Shown here piece after piece: positions 1-46,420 of a stretch of 46,420 nucleotides of DNA (the stretch's first letter is position 1; each line of letters opens with the position of its first letter). The notes under the pieces were generated by a model. That model saw nothing but the letters and a program-made list of their open reading frames with translations. It ran no database searches and was not told the DNA's origin. Position numbers and translations under genes: made by a program. The DNA is taken from the IMG/VR virus record IMGVR_UViG_3300034146_000006, positions 1 through 46,420 of that record. One strand, written 5' to 3'. This stretch comes from a virus.

Positions 1-127
1 ATCCTATTTATGTGTCCGATAAGCCCACACCGTAAACACTCAGCTTTAGGCGGTTTCCGTTCCACTCTCCGACCACTCCAAGGGCTGTCAGCACGTCGAT
101 CTGTTCCTCGAAGCCGAGCCGGTCGAT
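1..127. repeat. Terminal direct repeat, left copy (assembly overlap of a circular contig)
   Basis: Bases 1-127 are identical to 46294-46420. The 3' end of the integrase ORF lies inside it. Confidence 0.95.
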
Positions 128-1480
128 CGTACCCCGCCACTCGGCTAGGGTAGCCTTCAGGTCTTTCCTCGCTTTCGGTGGACGGCTGAGAGCTTCCCGC
201 TCCCGTATGATCCTGTCCAGTTCGTTCTGCTTGGTGCCTATCTCTTTCTTGAAGCGATCCCACAGCGAGTCCGGGGCGTCGGCAGACCGTGTGATGAGCT
301 TCCCGATCTCAGCGTTGAGCGTTTTGACTCGCCGGTCGATCGCGTCGATCATAGGTCGGTTGTCTTTGGTTCTCTCCACAGGCGCCATTAGAGTTTGCAG
401 GTACGTCTCGTCCTTTACGATCTTGAGTACCATCTGCCACACCGAGTCCTCGATCCTGTGCGCCGTAAGCGACTTCGTTCCGCAGTTGAGCGTGCCCTGT
501 CCCCGGCTCCAACACCTGTACGACCGATGATCTGCCTTGCCGCCAGTGTGAGGCACGAGAGAGCGTCCGCAGGTGCCACATCTGATCTTCCCACGGAGTA
601 GATACCGGGTGCGTGCCGGTCGCCGCTTCTCGGCTTTATTGCTTTGGATGCGAGCCTCTGCTTCGTTGAACGTATGCTCAGTTACGATGGCGGGGCTGAT
701 ACCCGGCAATTCGACCCACTTGTCGCGATCGTTGGCTGTGATGATCTGAGAGCGTCCCTTGCGACTGGTGGAGTACCTGAAGGCATACGTCTTACCGCTA
801 TACGTGACGTTGCGCAGAATCTTATTGATCGCGGACTTCCACCACTCCGTATTGCCTTTGGCTGTGGGTATCCCGCGCCGAGTCAGGTCGTTCGCAATGG
901 CACCCGTGCTTTCACCGTCCAGTGTGCGATCGAATATCTCCCGGACAATCGCCGCCTCTGCCTCGTTAATGATCCTGCGCCCGGTATGCGGTTCGAGATC
1001 GTAGCCGTAGAGCTTCCGCTTGAAAGACAGGGAACCGTTGGATGCTTTCGTCCGGCGACCGCGTGTTGTCCTCTCCCTGATCTTCTCGCGCTCGATCTCA
1101 GCGACGTAACCTTGGACTGATCGTAGAAGGGTGCCCTGCGGTGAGCGGTCGAAGTCCTCAGTGACGCAGTGCATTACCGCACCATATCGCTCGCATTCGT
1201 CCGCAAGGATGGACAGGTGGGCTACAGAGCGGGAGAGGCGGTCGATCGAGTAGAACACGAGCGCGTTACACATCCCCGACCGGATCGCTGACCTGACCTC
1301 ACCGAGCACATCCCGTTCGTGGAAGTAGGCACCTGAGTAGACCTCTCTCGTAGCGCGCACCACAGTCAGCCCCTTAGCGTCCGCGTACGTTAAGCAGGCG
1401 GCTTCCTGAGACTCTAAGCTTGACCCGGTTTCCTCTTGGCTGTCCGACGAAACACGGCAATAAATGAAAGCTCGATCCAC
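8..1480 (-). CDS. int: Large serine recombinase (phage integrase)
   Basis: 490 aa. N-terminal resolvase-type catalytic domain (FIYCRVSSDSQ, SIDRLSR), a recombinase domain, a Cys-rich zinc ribbon (CGTCGRS...YRCWSRGQGTLNCG) and a C-terminal coiled coil. GTG start at 1480. Confidence 0.95.
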   Translation of the reverse strand: MDRAFIYCRVSSDSQEETGSSLESQEAACLTYADAKGLTVVRATREVYSGAYFHERDVLGEVRSAIRSGMCNALVFYSIDRLSRSVAHLSILADECERYGAVMHCVTEDFDRSPQGTLLRSVQGYVAEIEREKIRERTTRGRRTKASNGSLSFKRKLYGYDLEPHTGRRIINEAEAAIVREIFDRTLDGESTGAIANDLTRRGIPTAKGNTEWWKSAINKILRNVTYSGKTYAFRYSTSRKGRSQIITANDRDKWVELPGISPAIVTEHTFNEAEARIQSNKAEKRRPARTRYLLRGKIRCGTCGRSLVPHTGGKADHRSYRCWSRGQGTLNCGTKSLTAHRIEDSVWQMVLKIVKDETYLQTLMAPVERTKDNRPMIDAIDRRVKTLNAEIGKLITRSADAPDSLWDRFKKEIGTKQNELDRIIREREALSRPPKARKDLKATLAEWRGTIDRLGFEEQIDVLTALGVVGEWNGNRLKLSVYGVGLSDT

Positions 1481-5953: not shown

Positions 5954-6960
5954 TAACCTTTCAGCTTGCCGAGCAACTGATCGAGTGAGGTAATCTCACC
6001 GCCGTCCTCTGTTGCCGGTGCGGGAGTAGCAACGGACGCCGGGGCAGGTTCGGCTTTCTTCTTAGGGGCGGCTTTCTTCGCGGCTTTCGGCTTGGTGCCA
6101 AGAAGCTCGGCGAGTCCGGGCGCAGGTGCGGCTTCGGGTTCAGGTTCCGGTGTCGGATCAGGAACGGGCACTGGTGCAGGTGCGGGTGCGGGTGCGGGTG
6201 CCACTTCCGCGACGACCACCGGCTGTTGCGCAGTGTGGGTCGGCTCAGAGCTACGCGCCTGAATCTTGACCGCGTTCAGCACGTCGGACTCTTGCGCGAG
6301 GTTGGTGATCGTCTCGTAGTCCTCACGGGTGTCTACTGTCCCGGCAAACTCGAACTGTAGCGAAGGAAACTCCGTGTCGCCGAGGCTCACACGCGTCTTT
6401 GCGGCGTTGGCGGGTACGCCTGCGAGGTTGAGCTTCTGGATGTACGCGGCGAACGGCTTGAGCGATGCGGCAGGAATGCGCAGTGCAAACGCTTTGTCGG
6501 GAGCGGCGGTCAGCGCGAGCACGATGAGCTTATAGTCGTTGCAGGCTTTCGACTTCTTGCCGGTGACCTGACTGATCTTCGACCCCCACGCGTTGTTGGG
6601 GCAGACCTGACAGTTCGTGGCGACAGGGTTGTCCACGTTCCTATCTGGATGCTCGCCGTCGGCCGATGAGCAATCGGGTGCCTTGTTCTCGGCGCTTGGG
6701 TTGTACCCACCGGCGTAGAACGTCTTGGATATGTTCGGGCGCGACGTGACGAGGAACGCTTCTATGAAGGCATCCCTAAGCACGGTTTCTTCGCCGCCGA
6801 TCTTGAGACGGAAGCGGTTACCTCGGATCGAGATTTGAGGGATAAACTCGCCGCCTGAAATACCACCCGCGAACGGATCGTTGACGACTGCAAGTTCTTC
6901 CTTGCCGATGATACCTGCGAGCGCCGCAGGGTTAAATTTTTCAAGTGCGTTTTCTGACAT
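5953..6960 (-). CDS. Cys4 protein with Pro/Ala/Lys-rich tail; possible ssDNA-binding or recombination accessory protein (function not recognised)
   Basis: 335 aa counted from the ATG at 6960 (MSENALEKF), preferred over 6993 for its shorter overlap. Motifs PDCSSADG...CQVCPNNAWGSK...KACNDYK. C-terminal tail is PAPAPAPAPVPVP followed by KPKAAKKAAPKKKA. Confidence 0.8.
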   Translation of the reverse strand: MSENALEKFNPAALAGIIGKEELAVVNDPFAGGISGGEFIPQISIRGNRFRLKIGGEETVLRDAFIEAFLVTSRPNISKTFYAGGYNPSAENKAPDCSSADGEHPDRNVDNPVATNCQVCPNNAWGSKISQVTGKKSKACNDYKLIVLALTAAPDKAFALRIPAASLKPFAAYIQKLNLAGVPANAAKTRVSLGDTEFPSLQFEFAGTVDTREDYETITNLAQESDVLNAVKIQARSSEPTHTAQQPVVVAEVAPAPAPAPAPVPVPDPTPEPEPEAAPAPGLAELLGTKPKAAKKAAPKKKAEPAPASVATPAPATEDGGEITSLDQLLGKLKG

Positions 6961-7168
6961 TGTTTTCAGCTTTTCCTTTTCGGTATGCCTCACTGTTGGT
7001 AAGGTTCTTGTTAATGTGTTCCGAGAGAAGTTGGCGACTTACCTTCAAGCCCCGCGCGTTCTCCAATATGGTCTTGCCGGACGCTCCGAGCTTGAACAGC
7101 AGTTCCGGCGTGAACTCGATTCTTCGGCGCTTATCTACAGCTACGACCGCGCCGTTCCATCGCTTCAC
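6941..7168 (-). CDS. Small putative DNA-binding protein (HTH-like)
   Basis: 75 aa. GKTILENARGLKVSRQLLSEHI reads like a helix-turn-helix. Confidence 0.6.
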   Translation of the reverse strand: MKRWNGAVVAVDKRRRIEFTPELLFKLGASGKTILENARGLKVSRQLLSEHINKNLTNSEAYRKGKAENNVRKRT

Positions 7169-10600: not shown

Positions 10601-11034
10601 TACTGAACCACCTGCATCCCGCGCTGTTGTGCGTATGCCGCGTAGATCGGGTTGTTGGTAGCGAGCCTGCCGTTCCTGTCGATGTGCGCCGGTTGGTTAG
10701 GCGGCGAGTTCTTCAGTTGGAACTTGGCAAAGATGCGAGCGGCTTTCGAGAGCGGCTTGCGTTTGGCGTGGAACTGCCCGTAGCCGGGGTAGTTCTTACC
10801 GTCAGCTTGGACGGCACCCTTACGTAGCTGTGCGTCGAGACAGCGACGGTCGTGGCGGTTGTTTCCGGCGTGTAGCCAAATGTGGCGGCTGAGATCAGTG
10901 ACGACCTGTACGGCTTCCTCTGCCGACATCCGTGCGACCGGGCTTGTTGCCTGTTGTTCTTCAGGCTGTGATTTATTCCACCGTGCGACCGTTTTCTTGG
11001 CGCGACCGAATAGGTCTGTGACCAGTTGTTTCAT
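10600..11034 (-). CDS. Hypothetical basic protein (144 aa)
   Basis: SD AAGGGAG upstream. TAATG-type coupling to the next gene. Confidence 0.75.
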   Translation of the reverse strand: MKQLVTDLFGRAKKTVARWNKSQPEEQQATSPVARMSAEEAVQVVTDLSRHIWLHAGNNRHDRRCLDAQLRKGAVQADGKNYPGYGQFHAKRKPLSKAARIFAKFQLKNSPPNQPAHIDRNGRLATNNPIYAAYAQQRGMQVVQ

Positions 11035-11104
11035 TACGACTCCCTTGTTGTTTTCAGCTAACGGTTATGAAGATTTGTGCGGCGCCCAAATGCCGCCTAG
11101 CGAA

Positions 11105-14256: not shown

Positions 14257-15671
14257 AAGCGCTCAATCATCCAGTCAACCGTTCCGTAGAGGTCGGCGAT
14301 CGTCAGGTGGTTAGGGAGCACCCAATCGACACGGGTGAGCGGCTGTTCGGATGCGTGACCGTTGATTGCCTCTACCCCTTGACGTTTGACTTCACAAACT
14401 TCACCACCGAGCGCCTTGACGAACTCAGCCTCGTTGTCGAATCGAATGTCCGTGATGACGACCGGGTTGGGGTACGCCGCCGCGATCTTCTTCTTGGCGA
14501 TGTCGAGCCAGATGTGGTCGCCGTGAATAGCACGCCCGGCATCCGTACCGATCTTCTGAAGTGTGGTGCGAACGGCAGGGAACTTCTTGGCACGCTCCCA
14601 CCCGATGACGCTGACGAGAGTGCTAAGACGGGTGAAGAAGGTTAAGCCTTCCGCGCCCCACGCTCCCTGCAACCCGAAGAAGTCCCAAAGGGTTAATTCT
14701 TCTAAGAGGGCTTCCTGCGTGAGTCCGACAACGGGATCGAGGGCAAGTGCGGCGTCCCTAACCGCGTCTGCGAGTCCTATCCGGGTGAAGCCGTACGTCT
14801 CTACGAGGTAGGCGCCTACCGTGTCCTTGCCGCTCTGAGCCACACCGTTGAGTCCGATGATGATTTGCTCTCGACGCGGTTCCTCGTCCTGCGTACCTGT
14901 CTCGTCCGGTGCCGGGTAGACTGGAGCCTTGGGTGACTGACCGAAGCAGTCCTTACCTACGTGTATCTCGTGACACGCGCAGTCCTGACTTGAATCGCCG
15001 TCTGCCTGTGGGATCACCTCAAGCCTAGTGATGTCGGAAGGGAGAACGTACCATCCGTCCTCAGTCTCGTAGCGAAAGCCGTATTCCTGATGCACGCCCG
15101 CCCCGGTTATAGTCGTCACCTCACCGATTTCAAAACTGTGGCGATCGTCAGAGCCATTCGCGATCACTCGGACTCGATCTCCCGGCTGATACGTTGTATG
15201 CGTTTCCTGCTCAAATTTTTTGATGGGGGGCTTGCCGTTGCTTGGCGGGGAGTAGAAGTCACCGGCGCCGACGAAGGTATCCTTAATATTGAATACCCTT
15301 ACGTGCCCGTTCTCTCGGAGTTCGGGGTAAGAGAAGTACTTGACCGGCTTACCGCCTTGGAGTGCGTGGGCTACCTCAGCCTCGATCACAAGTGAGTCCT
15401 GCCAACCGTCCAGACAGAGAACCCAAAGCTCGTCGGAGCGGTCGATCATTGCCCTGTCGTAGTCCATCCACGGACTCATACCGTCCTCGGTATTGACCGC
15501 GCTGAATGATACGAGGTCTGTAATCGGGTGACTGTTAATGATCGGCGAGAAGATTAGGTATCCCTGTTCGATGAACTTCGCCGTCGCGTCTTGCACCTGT
15601 CTAACTCGGCGCTCTGTTATGTCTGGAAATTGGCTCGTGTACGGTGACGCGAGATAGATGAGTTTATCCAT
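14253..15671 (-). CDS. Three-domain fusion: nucleoside 2-deoxyribosyltransferase-like (DUF1937-type) + SH3-like middle + dNMP kinase
   Basis: 472 aa. N-terminus IYLASPYTS...FSPIINSHP...SDELWVLCLDGWQDSLVIEAEVAHA. C-terminus P-loop GLNGVAQSGKDTVG and ITDIRFDNEAEF...GHASEQPL. Confidence 0.9.
   Translation of the reverse strand: MDKLIYLASPYTSQFPDITERRVRQVQDATAKFIEQGYLIFSPIINSHPITDLVSFSAVNTEDGMSPWMDYDRAMIDRSDELWVLCLDGWQDSLVIEAEVAHALQGGKPVKYFSYPELRENGHVRVFNIKDTFVGAGDFYSPPSNGKPPIKKFEQETHTTYQPGDRVRVIANGSDDRHSFEIGEVTTITGAGVHQEYGFRYETEDGWYVLPSDITRLEVIPQADGDSSQDCACHEIHVGKDCFGQSPKAPVYPAPDETGTQDEEPRREQIIIGLNGVAQSGKDTVGAYLVETYGFTRIGLADAVRDAALALDPVVGLTQEALLEELTLWDFFGLQGAWGAEGLTFFTRLSTLVSVIGWERAKKFPAVRTTLQKIGTDAGRAIHGDHIWLDIAKKKIAAAYPNPVVITDIRFDNEAEFVKALGGEVCEVKRQGVEAINGHASEQPLTRVDWVLPNHLTIADLYGTVDWMIERL
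15187..15204 (+). repeat. Copy of dispersed motif (TGATACGTTGTATGCGTT), intragenic
   Basis: Shares the 14-mer CTGATACGTTGTAT with the copy at the integrase start. Confidence 0.5.
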
Positions 15672-15751
15672 ATTGATTACGACCCTGATTTATTTTTGCC
15701 CGGTTCCTGAGCCTCAGCGCTTCCCAAATCGCCTTGGCTCCCGGTATTTCC

Positions 15752-16061: not shown

Positions 16062-16266
16062 TCTTAATGTGCTGTCCCACAGATGAAACAGAGGGCACTA
16101 CTAGGAAAGACGGTCTTAAAACCGAAATTAAATTTTTCCCCTTGAGTGATTAAGAGTGGTTGTTTGTACGGAGAGAGTTTTTACGACCTCTGTTTGTGCC
16201 TCGATCTATCCGACTTCCCAAATTCGGTATTGCTTAGATCGTGCCCGTGCTTCCAACTGTATGCCA

Positions 16267-16290: not shown

Positions 16291-16626
16291 TCAAGCGGTC
16301 TTGGAAGATTTTTTCTGCCGGGCGGCAAGGTGGGTAGGTTCGACGCAATCGTTTCGTTCGCAGGTGCGTAGGATGGTCTTGTTCTCAATGTCTCTCAGGT
16401 CGAGGTTGTGCGCGATGCACCACGCGACCCGGTGAGCATAAACTACGTCGGCGCCTACACTCATTTTGCCGTAGCCTCGCGGAGTGTCGGCGCCTTCCCA
16501 AATTAAATGTTCGCCGTCCTTTCGTACACGTGACCAAAAGAACTGCTGTCGCTCAAAGTCAATCGGCATAGTCAGGGGTACGCTATCGAAGCCTTGAGTT
16601 GTAATCAAGTCCGTTTCATTCATCAT
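16291..16626 (-). CDS. HNH homing-type endonuclease
   Basis: RGYGKMSV...YAHRVAWCIAHN...ILRTCERNDCVEPTHL is an HNH_3 signature. Start taken at the ATGATG at 16626, because the track start at 16680 is a GTG; this gives 111 aa. Confidence 0.85.
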   Translation of the reverse strand: MMNETDLITTQGFDSVPLTMPIDFERQQFFWSRVRKDGEHLIWEGADTPRGYGKMSVGADVVYAHRVAWCIAHNLDLRDIENKTILRTCERNDCVEPTHLAARQKKSSKTA

Positions 16627-16644
16627 AGATGCGTTGTATGTGGT
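16627..16644 (+). promoter_or_regulatory. Copy of dispersed motif (AGATGCGTTGTATGTGGT) abutting the HNH start codon
   Basis: On the minus strand it reads TACAAC-GCATCT-ATG. Confidence 0.4.
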
Positions 16645-16696
16645 CGAAAGCCTTGGCTGTGAGGGAAAACCTAGGCACACCCTAATCCCCGGTGAA

Positions 16697-18992: not shown

Positions 18993-19940
18993 TTAGAGTG
19001 CCGGGTGCTGTGGTGCCTCAGCCGGTGCCGGGATAGTGCCTGCCGCGTTCGCCTCGGATGTCCATCGCATCTGATCCGCGATGGCGTTAATTTCCCCGTG
19101 CGTTATGGTGTGGCATCCGATTTCGATGTGTGCGGGTGTCAGGTTCCGCACGGTGAAACTGTCGAGGATGCGGCTACCGATGATCTGCGAATAATCGCCG
19201 GTCGCTAACGCTTGCTGTATGCCTTGCCACAGAGCACGTGCCGCGCCTAGTCCTATCTGTACACCCTGTGAAGTTTCGATCCGTCTTTCAACGTTATTGA
19301 TGCGCAGGTGTGAAAGACCGTCTGCCGTGTACAGGTGGTCGACCTCGCGCGCCCGGAACTTTTCAAGCCGGTCGGCGTCCTCGATTGCTCTCCGTGCCGC
19401 TTCTTCGCGTTTCGCTTTGTCCTGCGCCTTACGTTCTTTGGCAAAGATCGCGGTAGCCTCGGTGCCGTCTTTGATGGAGAACAATTTAGCTAAAGGCTTT
19501 GGGATTTTGTTTCCGGTCGCCTCAGCGTATTTGCGCGCGTTTTCGGCTAGGTCGGCGAGTGTGTCCAAGTAAATTATCGGTTTACGTGCCTTAGCGAGTT
19601 TGTCCAGTACGGGCTTACACTCGCGCTCAAATGCGCTAAATACATCGTTCGCGAATGTGCTCAGGCTAGGCACGCGGATTTGTGTGTAATGTGAAAGCGC
19701 GTGCCGGGCTTTGGACTGGTGTTTTGATGTGGTGTTACTCCACGTGCCGGTGTGGATGAGTACCACCGTCGCACCTGCCTTTGTCTCCACGTATCGTGCT
19801 ATCGGTTCGGCGTATGAGTATAGGGCGCCGTTGCGAAACGATACGGACGCGCTTTGACCTGACGCGGAGAACTTGACCGCATCAAAAAAGTTTGCAAAGG
19901 CGTGCACGCACGCATCTACCGACCTGTAATTCTTAGACAT
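18993..19940 (-). CDS. Hypothetical protein (315 aa)
   Basis: Long co-oriented ORF. Central Lys/Glu/Arg-rich helix and a C-terminal IGCHTITHGEI motif. No family recognised. Confidence 0.85.
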   Translation of the reverse strand: MSKNYRSVDACVHAFANFFDAVKFSASGQSASVSFRNGALYSYAEPIARYVETKAGATVVLIHTGTWSNTTSKHQSKARHALSHYTQIRVPSLSTFANDVFSAFERECKPVLDKLAKARKPIIYLDTLADLAENARKYAEATGNKIPKPLAKLFSIKDGTEATAIFAKERKAQDKAKREEAARRAIEDADRLEKFRAREVDHLYTADGLSHLRINNVERRIETSQGVQIGLGAARALWQGIQQALATGDYSQIIGSRILDSFTVRNLTPAHIEIGCHTITHGEINAIADQMRWTSEANAAGTIPAPAEAPQHPAL

Positions 19941-19954
19941 AATGTTTTCAGCTA

Positions 19955-19985: not shown

Positions 19986-20011
19986 AGGTGATGCGCTCCC
20001 AAATGCGCAGA

Positions 20012-31453: not shown

Positions 31454-31482
31454 AAAAACATCACAAGAGGTCGTAAAACGAA

Positions 31483-32238
31483 ATGAATGATTATCTTTTT
31501 GGAAAGGGCAAGGTAAGTCTTGCCGAGCGGGACGACAACGGCGCGGTCAGTAAGATTCTGTACCTCGGCAACTGTCCTGAGTTGAAAATTTCGGGTAGCG
31601 CGGATCGCATCGACCACTTCGAGTCCGAAAGCGGAACGAACGTCCGCGACCGCTCGCTCGTGAAAACGTCGTCACTGGAAATGAGCCTTACGCTTGAATC
31701 TATGAGTGCCGACAATCTTGCCCTGCTTATGTGGGGTAGCAAAACGGCGATCGCAGAGGCGGCGGCGCAGTCGCACTTCTTCCCGGAAGGGATCGCCGAT
31801 GACGACATCCATATCATCCCGAACGGCTTCAACCTCAGCGTGCCCGTCCTTAAGGACTCGGCACCTGTCGTGGTCACCACGAGCAAGTACAGTCTGGACG
31901 AGGACTTCGGCACCATTCAGTTCTTGGATGTCGCGGGATACACTCAGCCATTCGAGCTTGAATACACCCGTGGTGCCGCAGAGAGCGTTCCGTTTATGAC
32001 CGCTCAGGCACCGACGCGCTTCCTGCGTTTCGAGGGTCTGAACCTTGCCAACCCCGGCACGGCGCTCTCGCAGAAGTTCATCGTTGAACTCTACATTGTC
32101 CAGTTCGATCCCGTCAGCGATCTCTCGCTCATCGGTGACGACTTCGGCAAGTTCGAGTTGAAGGGTGCGCTACAGCAGGACGACACGCGAGTCGGCAACA
32201 GTGGACTCGGCGGGTTCGGTCGCATCATCAAACTCTAA
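31483..32238 (+). CDS. Major tail tube protein
   Basis: 251 aa. Position upstream of the chaperone pair and tape measure. SD AGAGG upstream. Confidence 0.8.
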   Translation: MNDYLFGKGKVSLAERDDNGAVSKILYLGNCPELKISGSADRIDHFESESGTNVRDRSLVKTSSLEMSLTLESMSADNLALLMWGSKTAIAEAAAQSHFFPEGIADDDIHIIPNGFNLSVPVLKDSAPVVVTTSKYSLDEDFGTIQFLDVAGYTQPFELEYTRGAAESVPFMTAQAPTRFLRFEGLNLANPGTALSQKFIVELYIVQFDPVSDLSLIGDDFGKFELKGALQQDDTRVGNSGLGGFGRIIKL

Positions 32239-43971: not shown

Positions 43972-43993
43972 CCTTGATTAAGAATGGCTAAAA

Positions 43994-44011
43994 TGATACA
44001 ATGTATGTGCG
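43994..44011 (+). promoter_or_regulatory. Copy of dispersed motif (TGATACAATGTATGTGCG); candidate lysis-cassette promoter or operator
   Basis: TG-A-TACAAT extended -10-like sequence, intergenic. Confidence 0.45.
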
Positions 44012-44038
44012 TTAAAATTTGGGAAGTTTAACGCACAT
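44005..44038. promoter_or_regulatory. Perfect 12-bp inverted repeat ATGTGCGTTAAA / TTTAACGCACAT (10-nt spacer)
   Basis: Overlaps the motif copy, 25 nt upstream of the endolysin ATG. No U-tract follows. Confidence 0.5.
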
Positions 44039-44062
44039 CCCCACCTTAAAGGCTGAAAACTA

Positions 44063-45085
44063 ATGATTACGAACTCGCTTTTCGAGCGATGCTTTCCTAC
44101 CAAGGGGCTGACCTCGGCGCGCCACCTGCGCAAGTACAACCTCATACGACAACGCGACGAACTCATTCGCGCGCTCAACATTTTCTTACCGAAGTACAAG
44201 ATCAACACGGGTGCTCGCGTTCGGGCGTTCCTGTCGTGCTGTGGTGTAGAGACTGATTACTTCAAGACGACTGCCGAGTACGCTTCCGGTGCCGACTACG
44301 AAGGACGCAAAGGTCTTGGCAATACGCATAAGGGCGACGGTAGGAAGTTCAAGGGCAGTGGGATCATCCAGACGACCGGGCGCTATAACTTTTCCCGCGT
44401 GATGATTCGCTTCGTCAAGAAGCTGACAGGCGTGGACTACACCACTAAACCAGTGATGCTCACGCGAGAGGCTACCCGGCTCGGCGTCAACTTTCTCGAT
44501 CATCCTGAAATGCTTCGCGACGATATCAAGATCGCGGTCGAAGCGGCGTGTATCTTTTGGGAAGAACAGAATCTCAACACCTACGCAGACGCGCTTCGGA
44601 TCAAAGAGCTTAATGCTCTAGTGAACCGTGGCGACAAAAACAAGACACCGCTCCATTGGGAGAAGCGCCGCGATCTCTACAACACGCTATGCACGATCAT
44701 CCCTAACAGCTTCAGCTTCGCCGAGGACGAAAACGGTGACGGGGAGTTCCCCGCTCTCGTCGAGGAACCGGCACCGGCACCTGCCCCGCAGGATGAGGTC
44801 AAGCCTATTGATCTGGACAAGGCTCAGGTGGGCTTAAGCAAAGCGCAGGCGACGTTACAGGCACCCGCCATCCAGACGATAGCGAAACGGGCAGGCGGTC
44901 GATTGGCACTAGGGCTTGGCTCAGTGTGGTCTACGACCGGGGGCAAGGTCGCCACTGTGCTCACAGGTATCCTCATCCTTGCCGTTGCCGCAGGCATTAT
45001 CTACTCGTACCGCAAACAGCTTCAGCTAGGGGTTCAGGTCGCGAAGGCGACGTTCAAGAAAGCAGTCGGGGGGCTATTCGCATAA
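44063..45085 (+). CDS. GH19 (chitinase-like) endolysin with C-terminal transmembrane helix
   Basis: 340 aa. INTGARVRAFLSCCGVETDYFKTTAEY and GDGRKFKGSGIIQTTGRYNF. PAPAPAP linker, then VATVLTGILILAVAAGIIYSY. Confidence 0.9.
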   Translation: MITNSLFERCFPTKGLTSARHLRKYNLIRQRDELIRALNIFLPKYKINTGARVRAFLSCCGVETDYFKTTAEYASGADYEGRKGLGNTHKGDGRKFKGSGIIQTTGRYNFSRVMIRFVKKLTGVDYTTKPVMLTREATRLGVNFLDHPEMLRDDIKIAVEAACIFWEEQNLNTYADALRIKELNALVNRGDKNKTPLHWEKRRDLYNTLCTIIPNSFSFAEDENGDGEFPALVEEPAPAPAPQDEVKPIDLDKAQVGLSKAQATLQAPAIQTIAKRAGGRLALGLGSVWSTTGGKVATVLTGILILAVAAGIIYSYRKQLQLGVQVAKATFKKAVGGLFA

Positions 45086-45805: not shown

Positions 45806-46115
45806 GGCAAAGCTCGTCTCCCTGTGTGAGAAGGCGAAGGATGAGGTCATCGCTTCCCGGACTCTGATAGCGTCCTATGAGGACACGATCACCAAGCAGG
45901 AAGCCGAACAGACCCTAACCGACGCGGAGCTTCTGAAGGTCAGGGAAGCCCTCGGTCACGAGAAGAAGGCACTCGAACACTCACAGTTGGCGATCGCCGA
46001 ATACAAGAAGGCTCTCGCGAAAGAGGTCAAGAAGAAGAACTTCTATAAGGCGATGGTAAAGGGGTTGGTGCTTACGACCGGGGTATTGGCGGCTTTCGTG
46101 GTGCTTCGGAACTAA
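45693..46115 (+). CDS. Protein in the o-spanin position: signal-like N-terminus, coiled coil and C-terminal TMD, no lipobox
   Basis: 140 aa from the ATG at 45693 (SD AAGGAAAGGA). Overlaps the previous gene out of frame by 113 nt. Confidence 0.7.
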   Translation: MNRYGKPLMLTASMALILILANVTFSQTSTGSTPPTDRAKLVSLCEKAKDEVIASRTLIASYEDTITKQEAEQTLTDAELLKVREALGHEKKALEHSQLAIAEYKKALAKEVKKKNFYKAMVKGLVLTTGVLAAFVVLRN

Positions 46116-46187
46116 GGGATTATCCCTAGTCAAATCAGGGAAAACCCCGCATTGACTCTCAGACGGTGAATCGCTTATTCTCATAGA

Positions 46188-46260
46188 GTCATTCAGATTA
46201 CGACCCTGATTGATGTTTTCAGCTTAGACCCCGGTTGCCCAAACAGCCGGGGTTTTCCTT
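46188..46260 (+). ncRNA. Candidate small RNA / functional 3' UTR of the late transcript (antisense seeds to five phage translation-initiation regions)
   Basis: TTGACT (46152-46157), 18 nt, TATTCT (46176-46181) upstream, an intrinsic terminator downstream, and no ORF. Carries GATTACGACCCTGATT and GTTTTCAGC. Confidence 0.3.
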
Positions 46261-46261
46261 T
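46229..46261 (+). terminator. Rho-independent terminator of the late/lysis operon
   Basis: CCCCGGTTG / CAGCCGGGG (9 bp with one G-U), 6-nt loop, then TTTTCCTTT. Confidence 0.75.
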
Positions 46262-46293
46262 GTCTCGGCATAGTTCGGTTTATTGACTACATC

Positions 46294-46420
46294 ATCCTAT
46301 TTATGTGTCCGATAAGCCCACACCGTAAACACTCAGCTTTAGGCGGTTTCCGTTCCACTCTCCGACCACTCCAAGGGCTGTCAGCACGTCGATCTGTTCC
46401 TCGAAGCCGAGCCGGTCGAT
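46294..46420. repeat. Terminal direct repeat, right copy (assembly overlap)
   Basis: Identical to 1-127. Confidence 0.95.

Follow-up and report, generated by a model that had tools for sequence, protein, structure and literature searches.

Phage-encoded small RNAs (sRNAs) that regulate genes of their own phage are, to our knowledge, known from only a handful of model phages. The c4 RNA is processed from the same transcript as its single target, and the P4 CI RNA acts via premature termination within its own operon. The plasmid antisense RNAs of the CopA/CopT and RNAI/RNAII systems engage through kissing loops, after which pairing extends over the ribosome binding site, and pMV158 RNAII is reportedly grouped with these kissing-loop systems. 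Type I sRNAs derived from 3′ untranslated regions (3′ UTRs), such as DapZ and MicL, are said to carry an internal promoter, as reportedly described by Chao et al. in 2012 and Guo et al. in 2014. The c4 RNA of P1 and P7 displays in its loops segments that pair around the ribosome binding site and block translation, and lambda OOP, P22 sar and P4 CI are phage RNAs of ~70-80 nucleotides (nt), running from promoter to terminator, that tune lysis-lysogeny genes by pairing (PMC12197685). SdsR, RseX and ArrS act on fepA through a 5′ part that pairs with the initiation region and a terminator loop that works together with a distant upstream stem-loop of the 5′ UTR, the effect of the terminator loop being judged likely to proceed without base pairing (PMC11979758). 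The window analysed here is the whole of the virus record IMGVR_UViG_3300034146_000006, 46,420 nt of a temperate phage, and the element in question lies near its right end, at 46152-46262. Known from its sequence alone, this element is probably the gene of a plus-strand sRNA that would pair with the initiation regions of phage genes and regulate their translation. The family lies outside all described ones; the kind of regulator is already known.

Transcription signals, structure and conservation of the element

The first-pass annotation of this stretch had read a promoter, an intrinsic terminator and no open reading frame (ORF) in between; both signals are present, and just 4-codon ORFs occur in the interval. 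It had overlooked the 5′ stem-loop that presents the first of two seeds. The element comprises the following features:

46152-46181, plus strand: sigma-70-type promoter, with -35 TTGACT at 46152-46157, an 18-nt spacer and -10 TATTCT at 46176-46181.
46188-46214, plus strand: 5′ stem-loop, stem UCAUUCAG/CUGAUUGA with a U.U mismatch.
46197-46205, plus strand: 5′ loop AUUACGACC, displaying seed 1.
46215-46225, plus strand: linker GUUUUCAGCUU, which is seed 2, complementary to the start-codon-proximal motif GCUGAAAAC.
46226-46262, plus strand: intrinsic terminator, a 12-bp hairpin (46226-46255) with loop CCCAAA at 46238-46243 and a U-rich tail.

The sRNA is predicted to start at ~46187-46189, with a length of ~75 nt in the window phage and 75-105 nt in relatives.

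The relatives, referred to by handles such as L081, belong to a clade of uncultivated temperate phages with DNA polymerases 60-76% identical and contigs of 40-49 kb. The closest one, IMGVR_UViG_3300033069_000502 (from L024, L081 and L152; hereafter the L081-type relative), is ~70-75% identical in coding DNA and has no integrase module; it keeps the element directly after the last lysis gene at 85% identity, compared with 67-73% for the flanking coding DNA. A scan for the two-seed pattern gave real copies in L091, L101 (a near-twin of the L081-type contig), L109 (where element, integrase and primase follow one another as in the window) and L129, most other matches being chance or an unrelated coding repeat (L086-L090, L095, L133). 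Through homologues of the last lysis protein we reached L153, L154, L155, L156-160, L161 and L168, each with the element directly downstream; in every lineage recovered via that gene, bar one, the element lies 3′ of it. A covariance model built from four copies scores the relatives at 42-93 bits (E at most 1e-8). The element is represented by nine distinct diverged versions in four genomic contexts, and is kept whether or not an integrase follows. Searching 71 loci from distant relatives with the covariance model yielded no further copies, integrase, endolysin and NDT/dNMP-kinase queries against viral contigs gave no useful relatives, and an exact 16-mer scan of viral contigs returned 23 loci, none of which matches the window by BLAST and which are likely due to chance. 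Among cultured phages, BLAST gave neither a relative of the locus nor a nucleotide match to phage, the best terminase match being 44%; no Rfam family reaches threshold in the window, where the weak sub-threshold matches are unrelated sRNAs.

The promoter match does not exceed the shuffle background within the window (2 found versus 1.5 expected), so its significance comes solely from conservation in relatives. The pattern TTGAC(A/T)-17/18-TAnnnT stands at the same position in ten lineages, separated by spacers without sequence similarity; it is unclear in the L129 copy:

Window: TTGACT-18-TATTCT
L081: TTGACA-18-TATTCT
L153: TTGACA-18-TATTCT
L154: TTGACA-18-TAATCT
L155: TTGACA-17-TATTCT
L161: TTGACT-17-TAATCT
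L168: TTGACA-17-TACTAT
L109: TTGACA-17-TATCCT
L167: TTGACA-18-TACGGT (the contig ends there)
L164: TTGACA-17-TAGTGT

The nine versions are predicted to fold into one architecture comprising (i) a 5′ stem-loop, (ii) an unpaired linker and (iii) the terminator. In the terminator stem all 11 pairs are changed on both sides across the nine versions and 98% of cells are paired, a level reached by none of 500 shuffles and approached by no slid register. The hairpin has what an intrinsic terminator requires, and its invariant loop and closing pair exceed a terminator's needs: the loop is CCCAAA throughout, except for CCCAAU in L155, and the closing pair is G-C in eight of nine versions. The 5′ stems differ by lineage (UCAUUCAG/CUGAUUGA, CAGUUCGG/CCUGAACUG, ACACU/AGUGU, CUAAUUG/CGAUUAG, UAAGG/CCUUA, CUAAUCA/UGAUUAG, CAAUC/GAUUG), which refutes the idea that the 5′ stem-loop is conserved as a sequence only, an idea that had fitted the first four versions. 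The 5′ loop displays UUACGAC in the nine versions (GAUUCGAC in L168), the DNA motif TTACGAC being near-invariant, and the linker (G)UUUU(U)CAGC, with invariant TTTTCAGC, is predicted to be single-stranded in all of them. Three elements would therefore be exposed: UUACGAC(CCU) in the 5′ loop, (G)UUUUCAGC(U) in the linker and CCCAAA in the terminator loop. The near-invariant UUACGAC and the invariant UUUUCAGC are both predicted to be unpaired and both have matches at start codons.

Strand is indicated by the terminator, which holds nine G.U or U.G cells on the plus strand that would be A.C mismatches on the minus strand, with at most one cell of the opposite kind, and by T-rich tails that lie 3′ of the hairpin on the plus strand only. 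No ORF is conserved on either strand among the relatives compared: the minus-strand mini-ORF reads MTL*, MTPLE*, starts with TTG or is missing, the plus-strand mini-ORF (MFSA*) is not conserved either, and both were rejected as products. Opposite 46152-46262 there is no credible gene; a 67-amino-acid (aa) ORF at 45981-46184, inside the spanin-like gene of the opposite strand, is not conserved. The conserved promoter, stem covariation, G.U asymmetry, plus-strand T-tails and lack of a conserved ORF together identify a plus-strand non-coding RNA, and the comparison among relatives thus establishes the transcription signals, the RNA structure and its strand.

These data also bear on the first-pass alternative that the locus, read on the minus strand, is a ghost 5′ UTR left as a recombination scar; it would then be the functionless remnant of a gene start, decaying after module exchange. 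It does look like a leader with a start codon and three further codons behind it, and it sits at a mosaic boundary, since the near-identical L081 (15660) and L101 (7995) diverge right after the terminator hairpin, which makes the 3′ edge of the element a recombination boundary, with an integrase module present or absent there. A scar is nevertheless an exceedingly improbable reason for its retention, since conservation of the element exceeds that of the coding DNA beside it, neither the start codon nor the mini-ORF of the minus strand is kept across relatives, and compensatory stem changes run through nine diverged lineages in four contexts. As an account of origin, an inverted copy of a leader cassette, the idea serves well.

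The genomic setting follows from the terminal 127 nt, identical at both ends of the window (1-127 equals 46294-46420): the contig is circular, with a unique length of 46,293 nt, and the 3′ end of the integrase gene is therefore visible at both window ends. The lysis operon and the integrase gene thus converge on the locus, which occupies the gap between their 3′ ends. The left arm, on the minus strand, comprises genes for the serine integrase, a DUF927 primase-helicase, a SNF2 helicase, a family A DNA polymerase and a DUF1937/dNMP-kinase fusion, and the right arm, on the plus strand, a GpA-type terminase, head and tail genes, the endolysin and further lysis genes up to 46115:

8-1480, minus strand: serine integrase gene, stop codon 8-10, equal to 46301-46303.
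43974-44002, plus strand: lysis operon promoter TTGATT-17-TACAAT, with extended -10 TGATACAAT.
44063-45085, plus strand: endolysin gene.
46114-46128, strand-neutral: palindrome AAGGGATTATCCCTA over the stop codon of the last lysis gene, 5′ of the sRNA promoter.

The lysis operon promoter (TTGnnn-17-TGATACAAT) is conserved in six lineages, TGATACAAT and the TTG upstream being kept in L153-L156 and L164; a constitutive-looking host-type promoter ahead of the lysis genes of a temperate phage suggests a need for post-transcriptional control. The palindrome, [T/A]AGGG-N4-7-CCCT[A/T], recurs at the equivalent position in L153 (10295 and 10316), L154 (10400 and 10419), L155 (10361) and L161 (485, where it brackets the -35) and is nearly unique to this locus within each of those genomes; it might serve as an operator or form a small RNA hairpin.

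The position of the element leads to a cis-acting alternative, in which it would be no more than the terminator and 3′ UTR of the lysis mRNA, stabilising it or folding onto its own 5′ leader, with a silent promoter and with the other matches due to common descent. The terminator does end the lysis operon in the window, being common to that operon and the sRNA, the endolysin leader is the most conserved complementary partner, and in the L081 type the -35 and the last lysis gene's stop codon overlap (elsewhere the -35 lies 8-70 nt past the stop), so the element is physically 3′ UTR. We consider such a purely cis role quite unlikely, because the hexamers are conserved while the spacers have diverged in ten lineages, because unlinked targets 7-16 kb away covary, and because the upstream gene is not a lysis gene in L109 and L129. 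In L109 that gene has its own terminator before the sRNA promoter; terminator sharing is thus not universal, and the sRNA unit is autonomous there.

On its other side the element faces the integrase gene: in the window, L109, L153, L154, L155, L161 and L168, 5-45 nt separate the hairpin from the integrase stop codon. The element might be an integrase retroregulator like lambda sib/tI, in which the plus-strand RNA or hairpin acts mainly on read-through integrase transcripts; these would be its perfect complement and give an RNase III substrate, and read-through is plausible given that the hairpin has no T-tail on the minus strand. This is very unlikely, considering that the integrase-less L081-type genomes (L081, L101, L156-160) keep the element unchanged and that neither the near-invariant seeds nor the covariation with distant targets is explained. 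The same integrase-less relatives argue against a serine-integrase attP site, which was also rejected since the arms vary while the centre is fixed and the loop motif occurs in five other hairpins.

The L129 copy (2232-2660) lies in a Chloracidobacterium metagenome-assembled genome, where a lone His-Me/HNH endonuclease gene, its product 67% identical to that of window 16291-16680, and the sRNA unit are found between host HAD-hydrolase and FAD-oxidase genes; it could represent the remains of a prophage or a mobile unit, or point to the host. We discarded a necessary tie between the unit and the His-Me/HNH gene, as the two are adjacent in L129 only and in an orientation unlike that of the 16222 cassette of the window. 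Close to its contig end, L152 displays short tandem repeats (1-190 and 690-780) of GACAGCCCG/CCGACCGG-type units together with a repeated GGCTTCCAAGGCTCGAAGG unit.

Initiation regions complementary to the sRNA

Seed 1, the 16-mer GATTACGACCCTGATT, is found in the window at 46196-46211 and 15675-15690 only (chance expectation 0.01), and the second copy ends 3 nt ahead of the ATG (15671) of the DUF1937/dNMP-kinase gene, where the flanks lengthen the duplex as the first-pass annotation had described, UCAU opposite AUGG and a U-run opposite the A-run. Seed 2, GTTTTCAGC, has 5 occurrences where 0.47 would be expected, a count that none of 100 shuffles attains; besides the one in the element, four copies lie on the sense strand, each 1-15 nt 5′ of a start codon (6960, 11034, 19940 and 44063). 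The extended matches that had been noted for these genes are likewise found. With the element masked, the window holds four complementary stretches of at least 11 nt (16, 12, 12 and 11); shuffles average 0.32 such stretches, and 1 in 1000 of them has four. These four longest stretches are all sense-strand and at start codons. In the L154 genome the longest stretches (15, 14, 11 and 11) are also sense-strand, with 3 or 4 of 4 at start codons, and its count of matches of at least 11 nt is reached in 2 of 1000 shuffles. The initiation regions and the hairpins that precede them are as follows, the folds being predicted:

44005-44038, plus strand: 5′-terminal hairpin of the lysis mRNA, loop AUUUGGGAAG, UUUGGG at 44018-44023.
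44052-44065, plus strand: endolysin initiation region, GCUGAAAAC, UA, AUG (44063); target of seed 2.
15669-15690, minus strand: NDT-like/dNMP-kinase initiation region, AAUCAGGGUCGUAAUC, 3 nt, AUG (15671); 16-nt perfect complement of seed 1.
15709-15740, minus strand: hairpin with loop AUUUGGGAA, 5′ of the dNMP-kinase initiation region.
11032-11059, minus strand: initiation region of a 144-aa gene, AGCUGAAAACA at 11059-11049 and GGGAGUCGUA-AUG (start 11034); target for seed 2 and for the core of seed 1.
11079-11097, minus strand: hairpin GGCGGC-AUUUGGGC-GCCGC, 5′ of the 11034 initiation region, kept in L152 and L169.
6958-6972, minus strand: initiation region of a 335-aa gene, AAGCUGAAAACA-AUG (start 6960); 12-nt complement of seed 2.
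19938-19953, minus strand: initiation region of a 315-aa gene, AGCUGAAAACAU-U-AUG (start 19940); 12-nt complement of seed 2.
19992-20009, minus strand: hairpin UGCGC-AUUUGGGA-GCGCA, 5′ of the 19940 initiation region.
31467-31485, plus strand: initiation region of the major tail protein, GAGGUCGUAAAACGAA-AUG, a candidate weaker target of seed 1; GAGGTCGTAA is kept at the homologue in the L081-type relative.

Three modules recur at the targets: (i) (A/G)GGGUCGUAA proximal to the Shine-Dalgarno sequence (SD), (ii) GCUGAAAAC, 1-15 nt 5′ of the AUG, and (iii) an upstream hairpin with a UUUGGG loop. The last is complementary to the CCCAAA terminator loop, a third contact that the first-pass annotation had overlooked. 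In gene-sense leaders the order is the hairpin with its (A)UUUGGG(AAG) loop, AGCUGAAAACA, (A/G)GGGUCGUAA and the start codon, and the minus-strand reading of the element contains all three modules in that same order, so the antisense relation is that of an inverted copy of the leader cassette. The sRNA gene probably arose as such a copy.

Hairpins with (A)UUUGGG(AAG) loops and variable, covarying stems are found at 44018 on the plus strand and at 20003, 16222, 15728 and 11090 on the minus strand; they are conserved in relatives and either adjoin the stop codon of the preceding gene or form the 5′ end of the lysis mRNA, where in relatives, too, the stem covaries and the loop is kept. N4-like hairpin promoters were considered for these structures and dismissed, given that there is no virion RNA polymerase, that the hairpins follow stop codons and that G.U pairs indicate RNA. 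At 16150-16250 (minus strand) such a hairpin and AGAGGUCGUAAAAAC follow the HNH endonuclease gene, with ~180 nt lacking an obvious gene start beyond them, and so form a further leader-like cassette to which no clear gene belongs. The motif GCUGAAAAC often lies between a distant SD-like AAGGAAA and the AUG at 12-14-nt spacing (window 6958-6985; L170 6460-6495, 9575-9597 and 14550-14590), and the genes that follow the cassette AAGGAAA(A)GCUGAAAACAAUG differ from genome to genome, as they would if it were portable.

Motifs that recur in both orientations and change together within a genome might also be sites on double-stranded DNA, GCTGAAAAC, GGTCGTAA and TTTGGG, bound by a phage regulator indifferent to their orientation. 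This is highly improbable. Outside the locus, all exact copies in the window and in L170, and all in the L081-type relative save one that falls within its endolysin gene, are sense-strand and lie 1-23 nt before start codons inside operons and not at promoters; covariation of the hairpin stems includes G.U pairs, an RNA signature, and the matches are long pairwise identities rather than a consensus.

Seed-target covariation and proposed mechanism

Seed 2 exists in two natural forms, with four U (GUUUUCAGC) in the window, the L081-type relative and L153, whose targets read GCUGAAAAC, and with five U (GUUUUUCAGCUA) in L154 and L155, whose targets carry five residues, GCUGA(A/G)AAAC; the U count, 4 or 5, is matched in the cognate targets by as many residues between GCUG and C. 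At the endolysin leader, L155 displays UAGCUGAAAAACU, a 13-nt perfect complement, and L154 UUAGCUGAGAAAC, giving 13 bp with one G.U; the 6960-homologue has GCUGAAAACA in L153 and AGCUGAAAAAC in L154, and the 11034-homologue of L154 has UUAGCUGAAAAACUU, a 15-nt perfect complement of the L154 sRNA. The endolysin leader is the best-conserved target, with GCUGAAAAC kept in the L081-type relative, L153 and L164. Predicted duplexes between linker and leader reach -15 to -21 kcal/mol for cognate partners versus -11 to -13 kcal/mol across the four-U and five-U groups.

A second change concerns the loops. The 5′ hairpin of the L155 endolysin mRNA has the loop AAUUGGGAAG, with AUUGGG, and the L155 sRNA has the terminator loop CCCAAU, all others combining UUUGGG with CCCAAA, so that a U-A pair of the predicted six-base kissing helix becomes A-U. 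A third concerns the flanks of seed 1: GAUUACGACCCUGAUU pairs with AAUCAGGGUCGUAAUC at the NDT/dNMP-kinase start in the window, and in L154 GGUUUACGACCCUU pairs with AAGGGUCGUAAACC, 3 nt before the ATG that opens MSKPLIY, the N-terminus of the NDT-like protein being MDKLIYLASPYT in the window and MKKLIYLASPYT in the L081-type relative. Covariation is therefore seen in three cases, the four-U/five-U change at three targets, the loop change of A to U against U to A in the target, and the seed 1 flanks, and these amount to few independent events. As read from the aligned variants, they establish selection on the complementarity, and the first-pass proposal of a trans-acting antisense RNA gains support from the conserved promoter, the plus-strand G.U covariation, the seeds predicted to be unpaired and this seed-target covariation.

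Within-genome agreement of this kind would also arise if the functional strand were the minus strand, for instance as the 3′ UTR of the integrase mRNA, and if the copies of hairpin (UUUGGG), GCUGAAAAC and SD were read in the same sense by one factor, an RNA-binding protein or a ribosome-associated feature, co-evolution with which would change all copies in a genome together. The order of the modules on the minus strand matches real leaders, the agreement of 4A versus 5A and of UUUGGG versus AUUGGG within a genome is expected as well, and the L164 lineage has leader motifs but no element at the locus, which suggests an independent role for the motifs. A same-sense origin of the pattern is all the same unlikely: the conserved plus-strand promoter and T-tails are left unaccounted for, nine G.U pairs would become A.C mismatches, neither start codon, spacing nor mini-ORF is kept on the minus strand, and in place of the shared consensus that it predicts there are genome-specific identities of 14-16 nt with one initiation region.

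Several observations weigh against a pairing sRNA. The independent events are few, the change from four to five U being common to two possibly sister lineages and the loop change confined to one; the endolysin leader and the sRNA are 2 kb apart and may travel as one module; and agreement within a genome would also result if same-sense motifs recognised by a single factor evolved in concert. The -10 hexamers are merely TAnnnT and score 3-4 of 6. All five targets proposed in the first-pass annotation have their matches in the window, yet the L081-type relative has neither the NDT match (leader replaced) nor the 6960 motif (lost), keeping the endolysin leader and ACUGAAAAC at the 11034-homologue, and the 19940 gene is unique to the window phage; in L170, a more distant relative, GCUGAAAAC precedes three other genes. 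Duplex energies, one of the checks first suggested, favour the cognates for the short linker-leader duplexes, whereas in the whole-genome comparison the targets (-29 to -33 kcal/mol) do not stand out from a background reaching -35 kcal/mol, and in a whole-genome duplex scan of the L081-type relative the top matches are not at start regions. For co-conservation, another such check, seeds and targets covary across lineages, but L164-166 keep the endolysin hairpin and AGCUGAAAACA with an unrelated body of ~130 nt after the conserved promoter (7-13 kb seen). The leader motifs may function independently there, or else the sRNA is located elsewhere in the genome. In L164 (4338-4493; also L165 and L166) the post-promoter body holds a possible 20-codon ORF, MTDALSEERLIRGTPDLLSS.

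A pairing sRNA would act as follows. Host RNA polymerase would start at the sigma-70-type promoter, at or just past the stop codon of the last lysis gene, and stop at the intrinsic terminator of the lysis operon, the same sequence forming the 3′ end of the lysis mRNA. A kissing contact between loops would nucleate binding, and pairing would spread across the initiation region and block 30S binding. The endolysin operon and several replication and nucleotide-metabolism genes would thereby be repressed or delayed, in the lysogen or during lytic growth. Expression of the sRNA and the direction and timing of regulation are what we infer from these signals, repression being suggested by the pairing position next to the AUG. 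Since the lysis mRNA ends at the sRNA terminator, the 5′-3′ contact with the endolysin leader envisaged in the first-pass annotation is possible as well.

More speculatively, and with considerable doubt, the sRNA might be the master riboregulator of a modular regulon that genes join via a portable cassette (UUUGGG hairpin, GCUGAAAAC between SD and AUG, GGGUCGUAA), derived from an inverted duplicate of that cassette in the way that inverted target copies give rise to plant microRNA genes, with three-point recognition that includes terminator-loop kissing and with the 3′ end of the lysis mRNA coupled to its own 5′ leader. If so, it would be a built-in lysis timer or an anti-lysis safeguard in lysogens. 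On the main reading, the locus would represent a new sRNA family that controls the endolysin operon together with replication and nucleotide-metabolism genes through one motif, and would indicate that phage translation start regions can carry portable regulatory cassettes. The natural variants, four versus five U and CCCAAA versus CCCAAU, amount to a compensatory-mutation experiment, which makes the model directly testable, and terminator-loop kissing, if true, would provide a clear base-pairing example of the terminator-loop regulation reported for Escherichia coli sRNAs.

Comparison with known systems

Like c4, the predicted RNA is a small phage RNA directed at phage genes, with loop-displayed segments and two or more contact segments. 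It differs in having no relation to c4 in sequence or structure (Rfam), a different synteny and a position that is not upstream of icd-ant, and hence falls outside that family; unlike c4, it has a promoter to itself at the far end of the genome, four or more unlinked putative targets and a terminator loop as a predicted contact. The OOP and sar RNAs overlap their target gene on the opposite strand, whereas the window element overlaps no annotated gene, and its putative targets, unlike those of OOP, sar and P4 CI, are initiation regions scattered across the genome; read-through from the integrase gene could overlap it, though not in the integrase-less relatives, so the element is not a cis-antisense RNA of the OOP/sar kind, and its unchanged retention in those relatives likewise separates it from lambda sib/tI.

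Plasmid kissing-loop RNAs are cis-encoded, fully complementary and devoted to a single target, in contrast to the window sRNA, which would be trans-encoded and use short seeds on many targets. In the fepA case the terminator loop appears to act without pairing, whereas the loop of the window sRNA is a perfect 6-nt complement of the target loops, with one compensatory change. On sequence evidence the element belongs with the trans-encoded sRNAs, its own promoter and Rho-independent terminator enclosing a short non-coding unit, and more precisely with the type I sRNAs derived from 3′ UTRs, with which it shares (i) a promoter at or inside the end of the upstream coding sequence, (ii) a shared terminator and (iii) a conserved seed amid drift. 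It departs from these in being phage-encoded and, as predicted, directed at phage mRNAs, one of its putative targets being the 5′ leader of the lysis operon, to which it also supplies the 3′ end.

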